Sequence record: OR062943.1
Reading direction: 5' to 3' (one strand)
Source: Escherichia phage 241Ecol014PP
DNA: 64,000 bases
Shown here: piece by piece, positions 3,426-12,977 of the stretch
How the letters are laid out: every line of letters starts with the position of its first letter
Numbering within the stretch: position 1 is the stretch's first letter
Translations under genes and position numbers: made by a program
The notes under the pieces: generated by a model
The model's database searches: none
Seen by the model: the letters and a program-made list of their open reading frames with translations, nothing else
What the model was told of the DNA's origin: nothing

Positions 3426-4709
3426 TCATTCCAGAACCTCCCAAGTATCTGGGTTAACATTTCGGACGCAGATACCGACAGGGAATTGGTAGTTGTTGTC
3501 TTCTGTCCTTGCTTGATATTTGAAGGTGACAAACTTGCCGATCATTTCCTGCATCCTGTCATAGCTACGCTCCTCGTGCGTGCCTTTCATCTTCATTTTA
3601 ACAACAACACCCTCCTTGTCAACACAGATAAGAACACCTTCATCATTCTTATCTTTCTCAACGTCAATAACTTTCACCTCTGCGTCGTTGAACTTTTTCC
3701 ATTTCAATGCTTCAGATGTTCGCTGACCATACTCATACTTACCACAGAAGTTACGCATAATGGTACCTTCATATCCTTCAGACATAAATATACCAACAGA
3801 CTCTTCGCACCGATCAACTGTATATGCAAGCTCTGCATCAACAACCTTAATATGATCAAGCATCAAAGAAGAAATAGCACCATTTGCCTCCATAAGATCC
3901 TTACAGCGCCCAGACTCTGTTTCAGGATCCCACCACACCTTATCGCTAGGGATATCGAAAATATGATACTCTAAGTCGTAGCTGCAGTACCCTCCGTAAC
4001 GCAAATCATCACGAACAGGCTCAACATCAACAGGAATGTCCATCTTATTGAAGTTTTTGTATGTTGCTAAACCTGCCTTAATCGCAGCCTGACGGCGTTT
4101 TTTATCTGCCTCATAGTCTTTATCGATCTCGGCCTGAATCTCTTCCTGTGTGCGCCACCGTTTAGCAAGAGACACTATTTTCTGCAAAGGAAGACCATGA
4201 ATGTATAGTTCCCCATCAAGTTGTTTAATCCCAGTGGTAGAATGGAAAGAACGAAGTTGCTCTAAAAGCTTTCCTTGAATAGGGTAGGACTTATTACCAC
4301 GGGAAATAAATTTAGGCTCACCATTTTGGAAAACAACAAGCAGACGAAGGCCATCTAACTTACGCAAGATCCAGCAAGGTAATTTAAGTGCCTTGCCACG
4401 CTTCAGGTAGTCATGCACCAGCATGGGTAAAAGGTCAACACCCTGCTCGCAATCTTCCATGTTTTCAACATACCCCAGACGGACTTGTTTTTCCCACTTA
4501 CTGATCGCTTCCAGCTCGGCCTGTTGCTCAGCTGTAGTTTCATTGGTACGACCCACGTTCTTAGGTGTGCAGATCGTCTCTTTGTATTGCAGTTTACCAT
4601 CAAGCTTGCCAAACTCTACGATAACCTTATCACCATCCGTGAATACTTTCCACTGTTGGTAGCTGCCATCTTTGTTCAGTGCGTACAGTGTTGTTTTGAT
4701 TTGATGCAT
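3426..4709 (-). CDS. ATP-dependent DNA ligase
   Basis: Nucleotidyltransferase motif I KLDGLR (KxDGxR), motif IV EGYEGTIMR, motif V KWKKF; 427 aa. Confidence 0.65.
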   Translation of the reverse strand: MHQIKTTLYALNKDGSYQQWKVFTDGDKVIVEFGKLDGKLQYKETICTPKNVGRTNETTAEQQAELEAISKWEKQVRLGYVENMEDCEQGVDLLPMLVHDYLKRGKALKLPCWILRKLDGLRLLVVFQNGEPKFISRGNKSYPIQGKLLEQLRSFHSTTGIKQLDGELYIHGLPLQKIVSLAKRWRTQEEIQAEIDKDYEADKKRRQAAIKAGLATYKNFNKMDIPVDVEPVRDDLRYGGYCSYDLEYHIFDIPSDKVWWDPETESGRCKDLMEANGAISSLMLDHIKVVDAELAYTVDRCEESVGIFMSEGYEGTIMRNFCGKYEYGQRTSEALKWKKFNDAEVKVIDVEKDKNDEGVLICVDKEGVVVKMKMKGTHEERSYDRMQEMIGKFVTFKYQARTEDNNYQFPVGICVRNVNPDTWEVLE

Positions 4710-5303: not shown

Positions 5304-5336
5304 AACAAGTAAAGCCGGGTAATCCCGGCTATGTTG

Positions 5337-6050
5337 TTAAATATACTCTGTTACATCCTTGAAGCTAGAAGGCTTCATGATCTTACCTTTACTGTCAAGA
5401 AATATGATAACTTTATTACCGTTGTAGAATTCTTCCTTAGCAACAAAACCTTCATATCTACCATCAAAGCGTCGCTCAAGATCTTTAATCTCCAACTCGA
5501 TGAGTTGTTCAGCAGGCATATCTGCACTGGCACCGTGTGAATACCGTAGATGGTTGACCCGTGCAAACTTGCTGTCATTAGATTTGAGAACCTTACGCAT
5601 CATCCCGCACACATCGCCGCGAAGCTGGAACAGCAAAGCTGTTGACAACTCTGCTAAGCGGTAAGCGGATGCTCTTTGCTTAGAGGTGTTTTTCGCAGCG
5701 ATCAGTGTATCATAGAACTCACCGATCTTGAACTTAAGACCTCGCGGATTATCAAACAGGTTTGACCACTTTTCGTGATTATCATTAACAAGATAAGCGG
5801 CATAACTTGTGACAACGTGAAGATCGCAGGCCTCTTTTAGCAGGTGATCTCCACCATCACCTTTCTCCAGCTCTTCCAAAACTTCATTGAACTCTTCCTC
5901 AATGAAGCTAAGCTGTAATTCGAATGGTGTGTATGATTTTTTCACTTTAGCTGCCACACGGTTCCAGTTTTCCACCCAGTTGGCAGACCAAAAGTAGTTT
6001 TCAGGCTGAGACAGTTTTTCCAGGTTGTCGATCAGTTTAGTATTCAGCAT
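5337..6050 (-). CDS. MazG-like nucleotide pyrophosphohydrolase domain protein (237 aa)
   Basis: FIEEEFNEVLEELEKGDGGDHLLKEACDLHVV fits the MazG-type E-x-x-E...E-x-x-D helix pair; C-terminal half unassigned. Confidence 0.4.
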   Translation of the reverse strand: MLNTKLIDNLEKLSQPENYFWSANWVENWNRVAAKVKKSYTPFELQLSFIEEEFNEVLEELEKGDGGDHLLKEACDLHVVTSYAAYLVNDNHEKWSNLFDNPRGLKFKIGEFYDTLIAAKNTSKQRASAYRLAELSTALLFQLRGDVCGMMRKVLKSNDSKFARVNHLRYSHGASADMPAEQLIELEIKDLERRFDGRYEGFVAKEEFYNGNKVIIFLDSKGKIMKPSSFKDVTEYI

Positions 6051-6063
6051 TAAAGGTCTCCTT

Positions 6064-6825
6064 TTAAAGTTCCATAAAGTTTTCTACGGTCTCAATGAAT
6101 GTTTTATCAGAGAAAGCGTCAACCGCCCCGTTAAACCAAACTGGGATGCCGCGATCCTCATACTGGTAAATATCACTACGTGAAATTCCATTCTCCTCTA
6201 GATGCTGTGAGTCGTATTTGTTAACGATCAGCAGTTTGGTTCCCTTATTGCAGGCAGGGAATAGTTCCCAGTTAAAATTGATAACTGTGTTGGAACAACC
6301 TACAAGGATAACCATATCATTGCTCGTGAGAGAAGTCAACAGGTCATACATGTCTGTATACTTCGGAGCTACTTCTCCGAAGAACACCACATTAGGCTTA
6401 ACCCAGATATACTTTCCTGGATCTACCTCAGAGTATCCAATGTCCTTAATGACGTTACTTCCTTCATCGTCCTCATAGACTATTTCTGGCAAATACCCGT
6501 GGACATGTAGAATATCTTCATGTTTTACACCAGCACGCTCCAGCAAATCATCTACATTGGTGGTAAGATTGATCACACGGCCAGGCCAGCGGGAATACCA
6601 CTCAGCGATCCGGAGATGCGCAAGGTTAGGATCAACACTGCCCAGAGCTACACGGCGTGCATTGTAAAAGTCATGCACCTTATAGTAGTTCTTGGCAAAG
6701 GTGTGGATGTTGCACACCTCATCGATGCTGAAATTCTCCCACATTGCAGTGCTACCAGATCGGAAAGTGGGAATACCAGATTCAGCGCTCAAACCAGCAC
6801 CGGAGATAATAATCAGTCGTCGCAT
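6064..6825 (-). CDS. SIR2 (sirtuin) family protein lacking the zinc-ribbon
   Basis: GAGLSAESGIPTFRSG, TTNVDDL, catalytic LHVHG, VVFFGE; no CxxC...CxxC module. Confidence 0.75.
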   Translation of the reverse strand: MRRLIIISGAGLSAESGIPTFRSGSTAMWENFSIDEVCNIHTFAKNYYKVHDFYNARRVALGSVDPNLAHLRIAEWYSRWPGRVINLTTNVDDLLERAGVKHEDILHVHGYLPEIVYEDDEGSNVIKDIGYSEVDPGKYIWVKPNVVFFGEVAPKYTDMYDLLTSLTSNDMVILVGCSNTVINFNWELFPACNKGTKLLIVNKYDSQHLEENGISRSDIYQYEDRGIPVWFNGAVDAFSDKTFIETVENFMEL

Positions 6826-6833
6826 AAGTGTCC

Positions 6834-7184
6834 TCAGTAGATGTTTTGTTTAATCTCTATTCCAAACTTTTTAAACGAGTCAGCTGCAAGCATGAATTTA
6901 CGAGCCGCTGATGGATTAGAAGTGTGCACGAAAATCTTCACGTTGTCAACTACAGGAGGCTTACCAAATACAAATTTTTCCTCTAACATGCAGAAACAGT
7001 CGTACCCTTCTAAGACTTCTCCTAAATCGCTGTCAAAATGCCACTCAGAAACGCGCCTGTAGAGCTTTCTATTATCGTTAATAAAATCCATGAACTCAGA
7101 AGAGTTCTTCAGCCAAAGAGCATTTTGGATTCCGTAATTTGACGGATCTCTCAAGTCATCCAGCCACACAATCAACTTCTTCAT
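6834..7184 (-). CDS. hypothetical protein (116 aa), translationally coupled to RNA ligase
   Basis: Start ATG 7184-7182 overlaps the RNA ligase stop TGA 7183-7181 (ATGA); GAGGA upstream. The track's longer start (7214) lies inside the ligase gene. Confidence 0.4.
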   Translation of the reverse strand: MKKLIVWLDDLRDPSNYGIQNALWLKNSSEFMDFINDNRKLYRRVSEWHFDSDLGEVLEGYDCFCMLEEKFVFGKPPVVDNVKIFVHTSNPSAARKFMLAADSFKKFGIEIKQNIY

Positions 7185-8116
7185 TGCATATAGTCCTCGT
7201 TGTGAAAATAGCAATCAAGTATCTCACGGCGTTCCTGCTCCAGGAGGCAGTTCCACACATCTTCTGTGTAATTGCTACGAATGAAGTTTACCATGCCGTA
7301 AAACTCTTCGTCAATACGTTTAAAGATATCATCATCCCAAATCTTCCAAGCTTTACCCCTCATTACGGCCTTCCGTGCCAAATAGTATGGAGACTTGATC
7401 TTCAGCTGCAGGTCATAAGGGTAGTAAGGCTTACGGATCATATACCCTTCGCCCCTTGTTTCTGCGGCTAATTCTTTTGCATAGCTGAACGGGATTTCAC
7501 GCACAGTGAGAGGACGTTTTGCACCAAGGTATTTGGCAATCCCATCTAAAGCTGCTTCTGGTAGCATTATTCCAGAATCATTATATCTGCAACCTATCAA
7601 ATATGCGCCATGGTCTTCTTGAACAATATGCGGATCTGAAGGGTGACAAATTTCAAACATGAATGTCATGTTTTCATTGCCCATAACCTTCTTGATAAGA
7701 TCTAAATTACCACATTGCTCTTGGATGGTTTCCTTTGCAAGGTTACAATATGGAGAATCAAGAGACCCGGTTGTTGAGAACAATAGGTCACCTTTATGAG
7801 ATGATACCACACCAAGGAATCCGTTCTTTTTCTCTACCGCAGTCACAAGCTTATTGTCAGGCAGGTTGGTGGAGTTTTCTCCCAAGTTAAACACTTTTGT
7901 GAAGGGCCATGCCACAACATTTCCTTCATTACCTACAACAATGCCTCGGCACTCCAGTAAACGAGGGGACAAATACCATAAATTGTTGTAAAATACTTTT
8001 CTAGCATATTTATAGATCTTTAACCCCAGATCTGGGTAATACCTACTGGTTACAAGACCTTTGTCAACTAGGTCGTCTGCATTAAAATACTTCATCATAC
8101 GTTCCTCATTTGTCAT
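7181..8116 (-). CDS. RNA ligase (Rnl1/Trl1-like nucleotidyltransferase)
   Basis: Motif I VEKKNGF (KxNG), motif IV EGYMIRK, motif V LKIKS; divergent from the kinase/phosphoesterase genes. Confidence 0.55.
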   Translation of the reverse strand: MTNEERMMKYFNADDLVDKGLVTSRYYPDLGLKIYKYARKVFYNNLWYLSPRLLECRGIVVGNEGNVVAWPFTKVFNLGENSTNLPDNKLVTAVEKKNGFLGVVSSHKGDLLFSTTGSLDSPYCNLAKETIQEQCGNLDLIKKVMGNENMTFMFEICHPSDPHIVQEDHGAYLIGCRYNDSGIMLPEAALDGIAKYLGAKRPLTVREIPFSYAKELAAETRGEGYMIRKPYYPYDLQLKIKSPYYLARKAVMRGKAWKIWDDDIFKRIDEEFYGMVNFIRSNYTEDVWNCLLEQERREILDCYFHNEDYMQ

Positions 8117-8159
8117 TTTGTCAGTCTATCCTGCCACACAAATAACCTAGTGTCAACAC

Positions 8160-8188
8160 TTGAAATTAACAAAACAGTTAGGTATACT
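8160..8188 (+). promoter_or_regulatory. sigma70-like promoter TTGAAA-17-TATACT
   Basis: In the 100-bp divergent region between RNA ligase (minus) and kinase (plus). Confidence 0.45.
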
Positions 8189-8216
8189 ATCGTTGAAATT
8201 AAAACGGAGGGTCACT

Positions 8217-8627
8217 ATGTCTAAAATGCTATATATCGTGCGTGGTCTACCAGGGTCTGGCAAATCAACACTGGCAAATGCGCTATCTTTAGAGGGTCTG
8301 TATCCACATTTTGAGAACGACATGTTCTGGTATGACGATGACGGCAATTACAACTGGGATGCAAGTAAAGTAACACTCGCAGCGAAATGGTGCAAAGATA
8401 ACGTAGAAGATATGATGCGTATGGGATACGACCGTATCGTGGTAAGTAATACGTTTACAAAAGAAAAACATGTGCAGGAATATGTTGACATGGCAATCAG
8501 TCATGGGTATAGTTATACCGTGATCGTGGTTGAAAACCGCCACGGTAATAAAAGCATTCATGATGTTCCAGACAAGGTTGTGGATCGTATGGAACGCCAG
8601 CTTAAAAACTGCATTAAACTTAAATGA
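8217..8627 (+). CDS. P-loop polynucleotide kinase-like protein
   Basis: Walker A GLPGSGKST near the N-terminus; ATG 8217 follows GGAGGG. The track's 8160 start would sit on the promoter. Confidence 0.55.
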   Translation: MSKMLYIVRGLPGSGKSTLANALSLEGLYPHFENDMFWYDDDGNYNWDASKVTLAAKWCKDNVEDMMRMGYDRIVVSNTFTKEKHVQEYVDMAISHGYSYTVIVVENRHGNKSIHDVPDKVVDRMERQLKNCIKLK

Positions 8628-8634
8628 GGAATGT

Positions 8635-9189
8635 ATGAAATACTTTGTAACAAGCGACACACACTTTCTCCACCAGCGGGTCATGGAGTTTGATTCATGT
8701 CAAAAACACAGATCTCAGTATGATCACAATCTTGACAGTATGAATGCGGGAATCATCGCCGAATGGAACTCTGTTGTGTCACCTGCAGACACTGTGTTCC
8801 ACTTGGGAGATATTGCGTGCACTAATGATAAGAATATCAACAACTTACTTCCAGATATTCTAAATATGTTGAACGGACATATTATTCTTGTTCGTGGCAA
8901 CCATGACACAAGGACGACTGTCAGAATTATGAAAGAGTTCGGTCATGAGGTTGTAGATTATTACGAGCTTCGCCACAACAAGAATTTGATCTGTATGAGC
9001 CATTACCAGTTTGCAAAGTGGAACAGAAAGCCTCACGGATCAGTCCAACTGTTCGGTCATGCTCACGGAACCACACAACAGTTGTTTGGCAGACAGTTTG
9101 ATGTCGGTTGGGATGTGTGGGGGAGACTCTTACCATTAGAAGAGGCATACCGTATTGCAATGAGTTTTGCTATTGACAGCGGGGAGTAA
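8635..9189 (+). CDS. calcineurin-like metallophosphoesterase
   Basis: SDTHF (D-x-H), GDIACTN (GD), GNHD (GNH[DE]), GHAHG; start placed at ATG 8635 because the D-x-H motif is N-terminal. Confidence 0.65.
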   Translation: MKYFVTSDTHFLHQRVMEFDSCQKHRSQYDHNLDSMNAGIIAEWNSVVSPADTVFHLGDIACTNDKNINNLLPDILNMLNGHIILVRGNHDTRTTVRIMKEFGHEVVDYYELRHNKNLICMSHYQFAKWNRKPHGSVQLFGHAHGTTQQLFGRQFDVGWDVWGRLLPLEEAYRIAMSFAIDSGE

Positions 9190-9236
9190 TCCCTGCTATT
9201 TTAAAGAAAATTGCCACACAAGGAGAATCAGGAGAT

Positions 9237-9587
9237 ATGAAAGATGGGGATAAGCTGCTATATCTTAAAGTCCCCCTTGAAATACTATCTATGTCAAAAG
9301 TTTTGAATGACACAACTGGGGAGGTTGTTGTTCTTGACTTGTATGACAAGATCGTATACTGCTACCTGCACAACTGGTATAAGCTTGGAGGAAGTTCACG
9401 CTTCACACCCAGCACAAGGAAAATTGCAGCAGATGTTGGAATAAAGAAAACAAAAGCAGCAGCGTGCGTTAAAACTTTAGAATGTGCGGGAGTGGTTGAA
9501 ATATCCACACAAGGGAGAGGTAAAAGATGCACATTTTCCAAAGTTTTGCCACCAGAAGAAGTTATTCGAATGTCAACAACTGGTTAG
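9237..9587 (+). CDS. small DNA-binding protein, helix-turn-helix-like (116 aa)
   Basis: RKIAADVGIKKTKAAACVKTLECAGVVEI looks like an HTH/wHTH segment; GGAGA RBS; iteron array lies 75 bp downstream. Confidence 0.35.
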   Translation: MKDGDKLLYLKVPLEILSMSKVLNDTTGEVVVLDLYDKIVYCYLHNWYKLGGSSRFTPSTRKIAADVGIKKTKAAACVKTLECAGVVEISTQGRGKRCTFSKVLPPEEVIRMSTTG

Positions 9588-9662
9588 ACCAGTAAAAACT
9601 TAAATATCTGTACTATAAGGATTCGTATGTTTTATGTTCGCTCTGGAACAGAGGTTAGTAAC

Positions 9663-9743
9663 TGTCCGTGATACGGACACTACTGTCCGTCACGCGGACA
9701 CATCTGTCCGTAATACGGACACTAACTGTCCGTGATACGGACA
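9663..9743. repeat. four tandem 17-bp palindromes TGTCCGT-N3-ACGGACA at 21-22 bp phasing
   Basis: Units at 9663-9679, 9684-9700 (one mismatch), 9705-9721, 9727-9743; perfect 7-bp arms. Confidence 0.85.
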
Positions 9744-9890
9744 CATAAAGAATATAACTAAAATAACTAAATAATAAAAAACAAAAGATCTAGTACTTAT
9801 GGTACTAAGTACATATACTTAACTTATGTAGAATATATTAGATCCTAAGTACTATGTTTTAAATTTATTACTTACTATGGGTAGTGTCGG
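9744..9890. other. AT-rich tract with GTACTTA/TAAGTAC inverted repeats
   Basis: agtacttatggtactaagtac and cctaagtactatg immediately after the iterons. Confidence 0.5.
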
Positions 9891-10235
9891 CCCTTCATTG
9901 GCACTCGCCTACGAGGGGCGAGATGCCGGGCCTCCCTGGTGCACACAATAACAGAAGTGCATACATGCAGGTCTGTTAACATGTGTGGGAGCGAAGCGAT
10001 AGCGCAGGCCAAAGTCCGAGCACTGATGTGGACCACCGACGAAAGCTTGCCAGCGCCGGAAGGAGTCGGTTGAGAGTCTCCCGCGCGAGCTTGGATGAAG
10101 TTTATGTGTGGAAACGGACAAGAAGGCCCCTAAATCGCTCCACAGCTATATAAACTATATCAGGTAAGGCAATCGCACCAGTTTGATAGAAAAGCTCGTT
10201 ACAAAGCGATACAGTGAGTTTTTCTATAACTTGAA
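9890..10235. other. GC-rich non-coding island
   Basis: Sharp GC rise versus flanks; only ORF is an implausible 70-aa antisense frame (9909-10121). Confidence 0.35.
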
Positions 10236-10247
10236 GAGGAGGCAGCT

Positions 10248-10826
10248 ATGAGTCCACGCAAAGATGACCGTGAAAAGATTGCAAAACGTTATCAGAATGA
10301 AGAACAGATGGAGAAAACTTTCAAGTGGAAGCCAGGTTTCCAGCGTAATCATTCTAACGCTCGTGATCGTAAGCATCCGGATAAGTGGTTAACACCGCCA
10401 AATGATGGCATTCAGGTTGGTGATGAGAAGGAGCTGTCACCAGGAAAAGATGGCAACTACATTCGCACTAAGGAAGCAGGTCCAAAGGATGACAGCTATC
10501 TTGTAGATAAGGTTCTTGACGGTATTGATGCAGGTGTTGACACTATGCGAAACCTTTTTCTTGGTTGGTATCGTACAGGGTTTTTCGACATCAAGGCTAT
10601 TCGTCGTGTTTGTGATATTAAAAAGTCTGCCTATGATGATGACTCTCTACATCGCACTCTGAGACAATACTCAGAGAGATACGGTCATCCAGTTATCACT
10701 CTTGACGATATTAACGAAGTGATGTATCATGCAGAGGTTGTTGCAGGTAGATTCGGTGATGCATATCTCGGTATTCTTTCTGCAAAAGATGAGGTAATGT
10801 TAAATAAAATTTACTATGAACGCTGA
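10248..10826 (+). CDS. hypothetical protein (192 aa), charged N-terminal region
   Basis: Strong RBS GAAGAGGAGG before the ATG; no recognisable motif. Confidence 0.5.
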   Translation: MSPRKDDREKIAKRYQNEEQMEKTFKWKPGFQRNHSNARDRKHPDKWLTPPNDGIQVGDEKELSPGKDGNYIRTKEAGPKDDSYLVDKVLDGIDAGVDTMRNLFLGWYRTGFFDIKAIRRVCDIKKSAYDDDSLHRTLRQYSERYGHPVITLDDINEVMYHAEVVAGRFGDAYLGILSAKDEVMLNKIYYER

Positions 10827-10836
10827 GGAGCGCTTA

Positions 10837-11025
10837 ATGAACAATCCGGTAGCAAAGAACTGTAATAAGTTCAACAAGTCTGCAATTCACACTGACAGGA
10901 AAAAGAGCTGGTCTCCTGACATTGACGAGGAGCTTGAGAGTTACTTTGAAGACCTGGTCACTAATGCAGATGAGGTTGCGATTAAAGAATACGCAGACAG
11001 GAAGGATAAGGCCGGAATCTGTTGA
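10837..11025 (+). CDS. hypothetical small protein (62 aa)
   Basis: In-frame ATG at 10837 after GAGGAG; the track's 10816 start overlaps the upstream stop. Confidence 0.3.
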   Translation: MNNPVAKNCNKFNKSAIHTDRKKSWSPDIDEELESYFEDLVTNADEVAIKEYADRKDKAGIC

Positions 11026-11051
11026 CAAAAATAGTGTTACCTGATAAGATC
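11023..11051 (+). promoter_or_regulatory. sigma70-like promoter TTGACA-17-TAAGAT
   Basis: -35 at 11023-11028, 17-bp spacer, TGa-extended -10 at 11046-11051. Confidence 0.5.
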
Positions 11052-11101
11052 TGCAATATGATGTGATACAATTTTAACTTACGAGGTCTACAGGTAATGC
11101 T

Positions 11102-11344
11102 ATGTTTAAGGTTAAGCTCGTTTTTCGTTCCATGAATGAGGATTATTTAGAAGATGAAGGTGAATTTCGTGCACTGGATGATGCAATAGATTTTGCCAAC
11201 GACTTAGCTTGTATGAATACAGGTTATGGGCTATGCTGTTGGGATGGTGGTGTTCAGATCGGTGATAGCAAGATCTTCTACTTCTACCCTGAGCCTGATA
11301 ACAAACAAATTAAGTATGTTTTATTTATTTGTGCTTTACAATGA
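11102..11344 (+). CDS. hypothetical protein (80 aa)
   Basis: ORF-track ORF downstream of the 11023 promoter. Confidence 0.35.
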   Translation: MFKVKLVFRSMNEDYLEDEGEFRALDDAIDFANDLACMNTGYGLCCWDGGVQIGDSKIFYFYPEPDNKQIKYVLFICALQ

Positions 11345-11399
11345 GGTTGTTTTCGTGTATCATGATGAATATCCAATTTAAAGATGAATTTGATGGCTT

Positions 11400-11633
11400 T
11401 ATCTCCGGATGCTTTGAAACAGGGTTCGGAGAAGACTGAGTTCCCCTTAGAGGGCTTGATAGTGCACCACACTTAAAATGGTAGGGGCAGCCAGCACATG
11501 ACGATGTGACCCCAGCCAACCTGTAACAAGGTCGAGCCGAAGCGCGGGTAATAGGCCTCTGGTAACCCACTTGTTGGGTCTTGCTGGTCCAGGACGCTGG
11601 ACAAGTCGCAGGGAATACCACCCTGCGGCGAAC
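11400..11633. other. GC-rich non-coding island with several hairpins
   Basis: Hairpins cacat-gacg-atgtg, gtccag-gacg-ctggac, cgcaggg-aatacca-ccctgcg; overlapping ORFs look spurious. Confidence 0.35.
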
Positions 11634-11662
11634 TTGACAATCAGTATTTGCTATGATAAAAT
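11634..11662 (+). promoter_or_regulatory. sigma70-like promoter TTGACA-17-TAAAAT
   Basis: Consensus -35 11634-11639, 17-bp spacer, TGa-extended -10 11657-11662. Confidence 0.55.
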
Positions 11663-11690
11663 CCACCTATCACGTGATAATGGAGGAAAC

Positions 11691-12029
11691 ATGGCGGATA
11701 CAACTAAAAAGCGTCGCCGTAGAGGCAGACCTCTGAAAGAGGAGTCCAACGCCATTCAGCTAGAGAAGAACATCCTTGATATGAAGGAATCTTTTATAGC
11801 GATGGTTCCAGAAGCTCACAAAGTTTTAAGAGAGCTGATGTTGGACCCGAAAACCAAACAAAATATTCGTCAAAGCATTGCAGAGTATGTTCTTGATAAG
11901 GCAGACCGAATGCAGGAAGAATATGATGAGATGTTTGGTGAAGAGGAAGAGGTGGTAGTAGAAGAGGCTGAAAAACCAGCACCTTTTATGCCATTTACTA
12001 CAGAAATACAGCCTGTTAGCAATAGCTAA
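11691..12029 (+). CDS. hypothetical DNA-binding-like protein (113 aa): basic N-terminus, acidic C-terminus
   Basis: MADTTKKRRRRGRPLKE then helical and acidic regions; could be a small terminase subunit or regulator, unresolved. Confidence 0.4.
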   Translation: MADTTKKRRRRGRPLKEESNAIQLEKNILDMKESFIAMVPEAHKVLRELMLDPKTKQNIRQSIAEYVLDKADRMQEEYDEMFGEEEEVVVEEAEKPAPFMPFTTEIQPVSNS

Positions 12030-12067: not shown

Positions 12068-12126
12068 TGTAAACATGGTCTCCCACCTTTTCTGGCGGCT
12101 AAGGTGTAAAAGAAAGCCACCCAGTG

Positions 12127-12200
12127 CCCTGTTAGCTTAGTGGATAAAGCAGCGGCCTTCTAAGCCGTTGACACTGGTTCGAGTCCAGTACGGGGTGCCA
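12127..12200 (+). tRNA. tRNA-Arg (anticodon TCT)
   Basis: Hand-folded cloverleaf: acceptor GCCCTGT/ACGGGGT, D stem GCTT/AAGC, anticodon stem GCGGC/GCCGT, loop CTTCTAA, T arm ACTGG-TTCGAGT-CCAGT, encoded CCA. Confidence 0.7.
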
Positions 12201-12330
12201 AGTTCTTTTTAATGTAGCTTACTTTAGCAGAGTAAATCTTCGGCAAGTGGCGGTAACCACTTTACCGATACCTCATAGTTAGTGGTGAGAACACTAGCTA
12301 TTTTAAAAAGAATTTAAATATTAGTATTTA

Positions 12331-12418
12331 GGTGAGTTAATTCCGTAGGGGTAGCGGGGCAGACTGTAAATCTGTTATCATTGCGATTCGGGTGGTTCGA
12401 CTCCATCACTCACCACCA
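12331..12418 (+). tRNA. tRNA-Tyr (anticodon GTA), long variable arm
   Basis: Acceptor GGTGAGT/ACTCACC, anticodon loop CTGTAAA, T arm GGTGG-TTCGACT-CCATC, CCA encoded. Confidence 0.7.
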
Positions 12419-12532
12419 AATTTATATTTTTAAATGCATAAATCATACAGATAATGGCATTGATATTTATCGTCGTTTATACTAGTCACTAACTGCTCGA
12501 AAATCAGTGTCATTATCAGTATTGTTTATAAA

Positions 12533-12623
12533 AGAGGGTAGGGAGCAATGGTGCTCAAGCGGTCTTGAAAACCGTCCCGTTGAGGATGACTCGATGATGG
12601 TTCGATTCCATTATCCTCTGCCA
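12533..12623 (+). tRNA. tRNA-Ser (anticodon TGA), long variable arm
   Basis: Acceptor AGAGGGT/ATCCTCT, anticodon stem GCGGT/ACCGT, loop CTTGAAA, T arm GATGG-TTCGATT-CCATT, CCA encoded. Confidence 0.7.
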
Positions 12624-12721
12624 TATTGTTGACCTTGTAATTAAGCGAAAGCCGGAAGCAGAACCGGATTATCAAATGTTACAGTCGTCATCGCCGACTA
12701 GCAACATGGTCAACATACTGA

Positions 12722-12818
12722 GCTAGGTAAGCCCTTTGGCAAGGGCGAGGATTTTTAATCCTGAAAATAGACGAGGTAGTCGTTGAATACATAGGTGGTT
12801 CGATTCCACCGCCTAGCA
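12722..12818 (+). tRNA. tRNA-like gene, non-canonical (about 97 nt); anticodon uncertain, possibly TTT
   Basis: Good acceptor (GCTAGGT/GCCTAGC), D arm and T arm (GGTGG-TTCGATT-CCACC), but anticodon arm has a 4-bp stem, the variable region is about 30 nt and no CCA is encoded. Confidence 0.35.
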
Positions 12819-12825
12819 CCTTTTT

Positions 12826-12901
12826 GCTGATGTAGCACAATTGGTAGTGCAATTGATTTGTAATCAATAGGTTGCAGGTTCAAGTCCTGCCATCAGCACC
12901 A
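12826..12901 (+). tRNA. tRNA-Thr (anticodon TGT)
   Basis: Acceptor GCTGATG/CATCAGC, anticodon stem ATTGA/TCAAT, loop TTTGTAA, T arm GCAGG-TTCAAGT-CCTGC, CCA encoded. Confidence 0.75.
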
Positions 12902-12902
12902 T

Positions 12903-12977
12903 GGCCCTGTAGCTGGAAGGTTCAAGCAAGCGACTCATAATCGCCAGACGGTGGTTCAATTCCACCCAGGGCCACCA
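12903..12977 (+). tRNA. tRNA-Met (anticodon CAT); initiator versus elongator not resolved
   Basis: Acceptor GGCCCTG/CAGGGCC, anticodon loop CTCATAA, T arm GGTGG-TTCAATT-CCACC, CCA encoded; D arm imperfect. Confidence 0.6.

Follow-up and report, generated by a model that had tools for sequence, protein, structure and literature searches.

A predicted RNA repair module and its accessory genes in the Vequintavirus Escherichia phage 241Ecol014PP

A stretch of 64,000 nt from Escherichia phage 241Ecol014PP (sequence record OR062943.1; the whole stretch is referred to as the window, and coordinates are those of the window unless a locus is named) carries adjacent genes for an RNA ligase, a P-loop kinase and a calcineurin-like metallophosphoesterase (MPE). 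In silico analysis indicates that these three proteins probably constitute the core of a phage heal-and-seal RNA repair module, acting most likely on tRNA. In the proposed mechanism (i) the P-loop kinase would phosphorylate the 5'-OH end of the broken RNA, (ii) the MPE would open and/or remove the cyclic phosphate to give a 3'-OH, and (iii) the ligase, adenylylated on K96, would pass AMP to the 5'-phosphate and then seal the break. The accessory proteins encoded next to the ligase, i.e., a cyclic-phosphate-processing receiver-like protein (cREC), a sirtuin and a MazG-like protein, would (iv) contribute to the NAD+-dependent handling of 2'-phosphate or ADP-ribose-cyclic-phosphate by-products, as was predicted in a published study. 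We infer the substrates of the module and the order of its reactions; anticodon nucleases would be its biological target, and the set of phage tRNAs encoded nearby fits a role in countering tRNA-targeting defences.

The ligase, kinase and phosphoesterase genes

The genes of the predicted core, the region between them and, for context, a DNA ligase gene are as follows:

7181..8116, minus strand: ATP-dependent RNA ligase, with a predicted Rnl1-like nucleotidyltransferase (NTase) domain and a short helical C-terminal region (311 aa; probable start 8098)
8117..8216, no strand assigned: divergent control region of the ligase and kinase genes (promoter-like elements on both strands; consensus matches only)
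8217..8627, plus strand: P-loop kinase of the 5'-OH polynucleotide kinase type (136 aa; AAA_33, 1e-10; phrog_505, 4.7e-10)
8635..9189, plus strand: calcineurin-like binuclear MPE, aq_1665-like (184 aa; Metallophos_2, 2.7e-6; phrog_547, 1.5e-51)
3426..4709, minus strand: ATP-dependent DNA ligase (context; PF01068 and PF14743; phrog_114, 6e-83)

An earlier note, prepared from the letters of the window alone, had proposed that positions 7181-9189 hold a three-gene end-healing and sealing cassette, in which a KxNG-type ligase is transcribed divergently from a P-loop kinase and a calcineurin-like phosphoesterase, each activity having a gene of its own. These are three real genes, as the coordinates fit three open reading frames (ORFs) exactly and each product has a Pfam match. 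The ligase gene diverges from the other two across a spacer of 100 bp (8117-8216), and the three activities are on separate ORFs here, though the kinase and the ligase are fused in some of the loci described below.

The ligase matches the Pfam family RNA_lig_T4_1 (2e-14, 54.5 bits, cut-off 28.3) and its motif I is K96-K-N98-G99, which is of the KxNG type, as proposed. The catalytic residues do not vary in a 57-sequence family alignment; in a set of 201 sequences K96, E155, E223/G224 and K239/K241 (motifs I, III, IV and V) are invariant, and they align to K99, E159, E227/G228 and K240/K242 of T4 Rnl1. An AlphaFold model built from the 57-sequence alignment has a predicted local distance difference test (pLDDT) value of 92.4. 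Comparison of the ligase with solved ligases gave figures of 23.9 for T4 Rnl1, 21.7 for Trl1-LIG, 16.9 for Rnl3, 15.0 for Rnl5, 13.8 for Rnl2, and 8.2 and 7.0 for Rnl4. The assignment to the Rnl1, Rnl2 or Trl1 clade, which the earlier note had suggested as a check, was run as a search of the PDB with the family profile; it recovered T4 Rnl1 at 5e-13 and no Trl1 chain at E<=10. T4 Rnl1 is thus both the closest solved structure and the profile match of the ligase, and it was recovered with the family profile, a single-sequence phmmer search of the PDB having given no match. Because the profile matches T4 Rnl1 and no Trl1 chain, the NTase domain is classified, at the level of sequence, as Rnl1-like.

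The likeness does not extend over the whole protein. Past motif V it has about 65 residues, predicted to form four helices, as compared with about 120 in T4 Rnl1, and the alignment with the T4 enzyme ends at motif V, so that the C-terminal tRNA-specificity domain of Rnl1 (~120 aa) was not found in the phage ligase. The score against the NCBIfam equivalog TIGR02308 is 38.6, the cut-off being 242. Since the C-terminal region is short and the equivalog score lies below the cut-off, the ligase is not an orthologue of Rnl1. Its true start is more probably at 8098, because a GAGGA Shine-Dalgarno sequence precedes the ATG at this position, the GenBank annotation in phage JeffSchatz has the shorter form (305 aa), and the first residues of the longer form are modelled with low confidence.

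The kinase carries the Walker A motif GLPGSGKST, and none of its residues G10, G13, G15, K16, T18 and D35 varies among 32 sequences. The signature of 5'-OH polynucleotide kinases consists of a Walker A motif GxxGxGK(S/T) followed, some 20 residues further on, by a catalytic Asp (D35 in T4). In a search of the PDB, the kinase profile matched solved 5'-OH polynucleotide kinases over the full domain, namely Pnkp1 (4xrp; 2.2e-8), the Mucorales tRNA-splicing kinase (6e-8), T4 Pnk (1ly1; 7.7e-8), the CthPnkp kinase (4gp7; 2.3e-6) and mammalian PNKP; Pnkp1, among the top solved relatives, is a member of the Pnkp1/Rnl/Hen1 repair complex. The MPE scores above the Pfam cut-offs of both Metallophos_2 and Metallophos and has every motif of the binuclear metal site (DxH, GD, GNH(D/E), H and GHxH), the residues D8/H10, G58/D59, G88/N89/H90, H123 and G141/H142/H144 being invariant or nearly so in 35 sequences.

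The gene context was compared in 80 viral loci with ligase homologues (35-88% identity), in which the homologues of the other proteins of the window were located; genes within 3.5 kb of the ligase were counted as near, or linked. Of the 80 loci, 67 have a kinase near the ligase, 58 have an MPE there, and 51 have the two together. The genes are arranged in three or more ways, among them MPE-ligase-kinase, kinase-ligase-MPE and the divergent order of the window. The genes of locus L005, for example, form a tight operon (MPE 9463-10014, ligase 10016-10948 and kinase 10949-11353). In about 10 loci the kinase and the ligase are fused into one protein of ~430 aa, as in L050:9527-10825, where AAA_33 covers residues 16-115 and RNA_lig_T4_1 residues 184-367. 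Such fusion proteins strongly indicate that the kinase works for the RNA ligase. Because the linkage of kinase and MPE is kept over varied gene orders, and because of the fusions, the triad appears to be a genuine functional core. The proposed three-gene cassette therefore stands as the conserved core of a larger set, to which the cREC, Sir2 and MazG-like genes encoded with the ligase also belong.

The fusion loci (L034, L035, L039, L041, L042, L047, L049-L051 and L053) come from uncultivated phages, and a search of the locus DNA examined revealed no homologue of the MPE. The fusion recalls the two-domain architecture of Trl1, with the order of the domains reversed.

Several observations weigh against an RNA repair module of this composition. 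Neither biochemical nor genetic data on these proteins turned up in the literature search. The nearest solved relative of the MPE is the uncharacterised Aquifex protein aq_1665 (1xm7; 1.4e-24), followed by GpdQ, MJ0936 and YfcE, and the MPE profile search of the PDB gave no CthPnkp or lambda-phosphatase chain at E<=10. As the protein is aq_1665-like and this clade was unmatched, it is from the gene context that the MPE is predicted to be the 3'-end healing enzyme with activity on RNA ends. Sir2 is near the ligase in 11 and cREC in 10 of the 80 loci. In contigs L089-L093, Sir2 orthologues (48-52% identity) are encoded without repair genes within 8 kb, and in two of these contigs a cREC-MPE-ligase-kinase cassette lies about 30 kb from Sir2. 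Finally, a DNA ligase gene accompanies the cassette in 24 of the 80 loci, and a part in repairing DNA ends is therefore possible.

According to this last alternative, the kinase and the MPE would heal DNA ends (5'-OH and 3'-phosphate) on behalf of the ATP-dependent DNA ligase encoded nearby, in replication or repair, and the RNA ligase would have a role of its own. Enzymes of the T4 Pnk type are active on both DNA and RNA, and the MPE has a weak match (2.4e-4) to PdeM, the DNA-ligase-associated DNA-damage endonuclease; its score, however, is 20.6, far under the cut-off of 150. Moreover, it is the RNA ligase and not the DNA ligase to which the kinase is fused, the tightly abutting genes are those of the MPE, the RNA ligase and the kinase, and in most loci the triad has no DNA ligase nearby. 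Healing of DNA ends is thus an improbable role, and the repair of RNA is preferred.

Accessory genes and the possible handling of a 2'-phosphate

Downstream of the ligase gene, the minus strand carries the following features:

6834..7184, minus strand: cREC (116 aa; PF20274, 1.4e-13)
6064..6825, minus strand: Sir2-family protein (253 aa; PF02146, 1.3e-26)
5337..6050, minus strand: MazG-like nucleotide pyrophosphohydrolase-like protein (237 aa; phrog_671, 1.9e-21; no Pfam match)
5313..5330, no strand assigned: GC-rich terminator-like hairpin (7 pairs, 6 GC; terminator pattern fits both strands; consensus scan only)

The window is part of the genome of a Vequintavirus (rV5-like, rV5-type E. coli phage). 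Its segment 6000-9600 shares 96.5-97.7% identity over the full length with deposited E. coli phage genomes among the matches listed, and in 117 of the 119 matching records the match spans 80% or more of this segment; in many Vequintavirus records 'RNA ligase', 'polynucleotide kinase', 'phosphoesterase' and 'Sir2' are already annotated there. The stop codon of the ligase gene overlaps the ATG of the cREC gene (ATGA, read from the sequence), the Sir2 gene begins 8 nt past the cREC stop, and the MazG-like gene, the last one ahead of the hairpin, begins 13 nt past Sir2. Because of the overlap, the gaps of 8 and 13 nt and the hairpin at 5313-5330, the minus strand probably carries a single unit, ligase-cREC-Sir2-MazG-like, opposing the kinase and MPE genes of the plus strand. 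The three accessory genes would accordingly be co-transcribed with the ligase gene, and cREC translationally coupled to it.

In the spacer between the diverging genes, a promoter-like TTGAAA-17-TATACT (8160-8188, plus strand) stands back-to-back with a TTGACA on the minus strand (8156-8151), both being consensus matches only. The 10-mer TGCCACACAA is present in two copies in the window (0.22 expected), at 8132-8141 and 9212-9221 on the plus strand. Both are located directly upstream of plus-strand genes, encoding the kinase and a helix-turn-helix (HTH)/replication-initiator-like protein, respectively, and the 10-mer may be a shared regulatory element.

The cREC protein matches PF20274 (cREC_REC) with 51.7 bits (cut-off 27). 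Among 12 orthologues the segments WLDDLRDP, HFDSDLGE and VHTSNPSA are conserved; the receiver-type acidic residues are kept, as are the positions DD, D, T/S and K. The family was named in a 2021 paper of the Aravind group on jumbo phages, and it has been reported in RNA-repair or cyclic-ADP-ribose contexts only (Iyer et al., 2022; PMC9503650). The sirtuin, which the earlier note had placed next to the cassette and which is indeed present (6064-6825), conserves GAGxS, FR, YxxR, TTNVDD, HG and KPNVVFFGE in 20 orthologues, and so retains the NAD-binding motifs, the catalytic His and the class-III Tyr-x-x-Arg pair. Among solved structures, SIRT5 and CobB match it best. The alignment with SIRT5 breaks over residues 110-141, a segment that is not conserved and contains no cysteine, i.e., the sirtuin lacks the Cys4 zinc module. 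No defence-system match was obtained with PADLOC for the ligase, the MPE, cREC, Sir2 or the MazG-like protein.

This gene set corresponds to the type-2 sirtuin RNA-repair neighbourhood described by Iyer, Burroughs, Anantharaman and Aravind (2022; Viruses 14:1977; PMC9503650), with Escherichia phage V5 and Proteus phage Mydo as prototypes. All six type-2 genes (sirtuin, T4-like ligase, cREC, kinase, MazG-family protein and, as an optional member, calcineurin-like phosphoesterase) lie inside 5337-9189, the MazG-family gene being part of the phage V5 neighbourhood as well (Iyer et al., 2022; PMC9503650). In that study the sirtuin was proposed to act like KptA/Tpt1 on an RNA 2'-phosphate (Iyer et al., 2022; PMC9503650).

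Among the 80 loci, Sir2 and cREC are confined to relatives of about 145 kb. In phages of the L004 type the ligase, cREC, kinase, Sir2 and DNA ligase genes are contiguous, with gaps of at most 10 nt. Sir2 as a constant companion of the ligase was ruled out by the linkage counts and by the contigs L089-L093. On these comparative grounds cREC, Sir2 and the MazG-like protein are regarded as accessory to the triad, and Sir2 and cREC as lineage-restricted.

The earlier note had speculated that, should the ligase be Trl1-like and leave a 2'-phosphate, a step of NAD-dependent removal would be expected, making the sirtuin of interest. The hypothesis of Iyer et al. can be sharpened as follows: the ligase would be functionally Trl1-like and would need an end with a 3'-OH and a 2'-phosphate, which a cyclic phosphodiesterase activity of cREC or of the MPE would produce; the 2'-phosphate at the junction would be removed with NAD+ by the sirtuin, or by the host KptA where there is no sirtuin. 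The embedding of cREC and Sir2 in the ligase operon would fit this scheme. So would motif I, since KxNG is common to the phage ligase and Trl1 (KENG in Chaetomium, KANG in C. glabrata), unlike KEDG of T4 Rnl1 and KVDG of Rnl3, and N98 is invariant among the 201 sequences. The 2'-phosphate site of the fungal ligase CthLIG (the ligase domain of C. thermophilum Trl1) consists of H227, nine residues past the motif III Glu, and R334 and R337, just past motif V (Ghosh and Shuman, 2024). An hhalign comparison of the phage ligase family with two Trl1 sequences from the PDB (probability 85%, E 6.6e-6), spanning the NTase domain only, up to motif IV, places H163 opposite H227 of CthLIG; in the same 201 sequences H163 is invariant and lies 8 aa past the motif III Glu, where T4 Rnl1 has Ile. 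On the helix directly past motif V, K249 and R253 are as invariant as the catalytic lysine (n=201), and they were matched by eye, not from coordinates, with R334 and R337 in the Trl1 segment 'YLMYRQWR'.

Other evidence opposes a Trl1-like reaction. Besides the profile match to T4 Rnl1 and to no Trl1 chain, neither membership in the Trl1 profile nor the five-helix C-domain of Trl1 was found for the phage ligase. The two arginines are missing from plant Trl1, so the His-Arg-Arg triad is no universal marker of 2'-phosphate dependence. Some 85% of the loci carry the kinase-MPE-ligase triad without Sir2, no Tpt1/KptA family is among its recurrent neighbours (top 25 families listed, 24 loci), and the MPE could dephosphorylate the end fully. 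A functionally Trl1-like ligase is hence unlikely on balance, and the residues shared with Trl1 are a lead rather than a demonstration. Still less likely is the bolder claim that this widespread family is the first Trl1-like, 2'-phosphate-dependent RNA ligase in bacterial viruses, with the 2'-phosphate junctions of repaired tRNAs removed by a zinc-less sirtuin (a non-ART, i.e., non-ADP-ribosyltransferase, analogue of Tpt1) or, where the phage has no sirtuin, by the host KptA.

The neighbours just mentioned were identified in a Pfam census of 145 ORFs neighbouring the triad in 24 mostly Sir2-less loci, of which the top 25 families were listed. They include PRPP-synthetase-like (5), Macro (3), Nudix (2) and NMNAT-like (2) proteins and Tad3, a Thoeris inhibitor (1), and 'Swiss-army-knife' HAD RNA-repair phosphatases also recur beside the triad. 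Since genes for NAD salvage and ADP-ribose processing recur in this position, the triad seems to occupy, as a tendency, a counter-defence island rich in NAD-related functions, which is consistent with mechanistic coupling or with mere co-location.

Genes for NAD salvage or ADP-ribose processing directly adjoin the triad in Erwinia phage Hena1 (L002, 2852-5595) and, with a Macro domain included, in L017 (7187-9186); the cassette neighbours in these Sir2-poor relatives include NAPRTase/Nampt-like and PRPP-synthetase-like genes. A NADAR domain in the 161-aa protein encoded after the Hena1 kinase was considered and is not supported by Pfam. In L095, a contig of a 345-kb jumbo phage, the gene at 6994-7515, preceding a distant Sir2 homologue (37% identity), appears NADAR-like by eye.

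In the case of mere co-location, Sir2, cREC and the MazG-like protein might lie outside the ligation chemistry, as an NAD+/ADP-ribose counter-defence set sharing an island and a transcript with the triad; they might act against NAD-depleting or ADP-ribosylating defences, or in the deacylation of host proteins. The census of mostly Sir2-less loci, the NAPRTase-like genes adjoining the cassette in L002 and L017, and the Sir2 orthologues unlinked from the ligase in L089-L093 all agree with such a set, and the Tyr-x-x-Arg pair kept by the sirtuin is typical of deacylases. Against this, the acyl-lysine site of a sirtuin owes its shape to the zinc module, which the phage protein lacks. The predicted translational coupling of ligase, cREC and Sir2 in the window, the interleaving of cREC and Sir2 with ligase and kinase in L004-type phages, and the restriction of reported cREC contexts to RNA repair and cyclic ADP-ribose likewise point to the ligation chemistry. 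A separate counter-defence set is a serious possibility, held tentatively, for the accessory genes.

Phage tRNAs and a structured region downstream of the cassette

The tRNA cluster of the phage, to which the earlier note had linked the cassette, was located with ARAGORN and Rfam:

12126..12974, plus strand: phage tRNA cluster (context; ARAGORN and Rfam cmscan)

The cluster lies about 3 kb downstream and comprises six tRNAs, i.e., Arg-UCU, Tyr-GUA, Ser-UGA, Lys-UUU, Thr-UGU and a tRNA with the anticodon CAU. The number is six and not five because Rfam adds the tRNA-Tyr (GUA; 12331-12415, plus strand; 39 bits), which has a long variable arm and was missed by ARAGORN. At 12722-12818 (plus strand) lies a tRNA whose anticodon loop reads UUU (Lys) and whose variable region is enlarged by an insert of 26 nt, which may be a long variable arm or a processed segment; ARAGORN misreads this tRNA as having a 4-base anticodon, and a 97-nt tRNA-Lys is annotated there in JeffSchatz. 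The tRNA-Lys(UUU) is the classic target of PrrC.

The unusual tRNA-Lys bears on one further reading, in which the ligase would mainly catalyse tail-fibre attachment, as T4 gp63 does with its second activity, or would process the phage's own unusual tRNAs. Both PHROG and GenBank use the name 'RNA ligase and tail fiber attachment catalyst', and the 26-nt insert might be taken as a processing substrate. The name, though, is carried over from T4, whose C-terminal domain the phage ligase lacks; the ligase gene is located in an early-type block of nucleic-acid metabolism, away from the tail genes; and nothing marks the insert as an intron. These roles are therefore very improbable in comparison with the repair of broken RNA.

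Between the cassette and the tRNAs, the ORF-poor segment 9700-10160 (plus strand) includes a GC island (9900-10100) with 60% GC, as compared with ~41% for the genome; a second GC island is found at 11400-11700. The segment folds far better than its shuffles (minimum free energy -151.9 kcal/mol, z -7.05) and opens with two near-identical hairpins, CUGUCCGUNAUACGGACAC. No Rfam family was found for it, a weak rli43 match being the only one. In relatives it is mostly unannotated, and it is conserved within Vequintavirus only, at 88-99% identity, which is too alike for covariation. It may represent a phage non-coding RNA.

Comparison with known RNA repair systems

The neighbourhood agrees with the type-2 neighbourhood of Iyer et al. 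(2022) in the phage group and in the genes, without a difference in content. The cassette and its link with a sirtuin are thus already known as a published in silico prediction, which the earlier note re-derives. The present comparison adds the counts for the core triad, the lineage restriction of Sir2 and cREC, the kinase-ligase fusions and, as a new detail, candidate Trl1-like residues in an Rnl1-like phage ligase. The literature search found no experimental follow-up on RNA repair in Vequintavirus or on phage sirtuins, only comparative papers of the Aravind group. With the sirtuin idea being published, the value of the analysis lies in sharper experiments and not in discovery.

If the core triad works as inferred, it would be a portable tRNA-repair kit present in many medium and large phages; its healing enzymes would differ from the T4 paradigm, which bears on phage escape from anticodon nucleases and other RNA-cutting defences. 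A sirtuin removing an RNA 2'-phosphate would represent new sirtuin chemistry, and a 2'-phosphate-dependent phage ligase would give the bacterial KptA/Tpt1 its first physiological substrate.

In T4, tRNA repair by Pnkp and Rnl1 counters the anticodon nuclease PrrC. The phage module shares the heal-and-seal logic of this pair, and its ligase and kinase profiles match T4 Rnl1 and T4 Pnk, respectively. In T4, however, 3' healing is performed by a HAD/DxD phosphatase fused to the kinase, whereas a separate MPE is encoded here; T4 Rnl1 has the tRNA-specificity domain and KxDG, whereas the phage ligase is without this domain and has KxNG; and T4 is without the cREC, Sir2 and MazG-like partners.

The Pnkp/Hen1 system of Clostridium thermocellum combines, as here, a P-loop 5' kinase, a binuclear metallophosphoesterase and an ATP-dependent ligase. 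CthPnkp is one polypeptide, in contrast to the separate genes of the phage, and its MPE belongs to the lambda-phosphatase-like clade, outside which the phage MPE falls. The Hen1 methyltransferase of bacterial Pnkp/Hen1 repair has no counterpart here.

The likeness to the Trl1/Tpt1 pathway comprises the KxNG motif, a His aligned with the 2'-phosphate-binding position, basic residues past motif V (matched by eye), the kinase-ligase fusion in some phage relatives and the NAD-using enzyme encoded next door. Trl1 (LIG-KIN-CPD) heals with a 2H cyclic phosphodiesterase, for which the MPE and/or cREC would stand here, and Tpt1 is an ART-fold NAD enzyme, where the phage has a sirtuin. The C-domain of Trl1 is longer than that of the phage ligase, and the two are not alignable by sequence.

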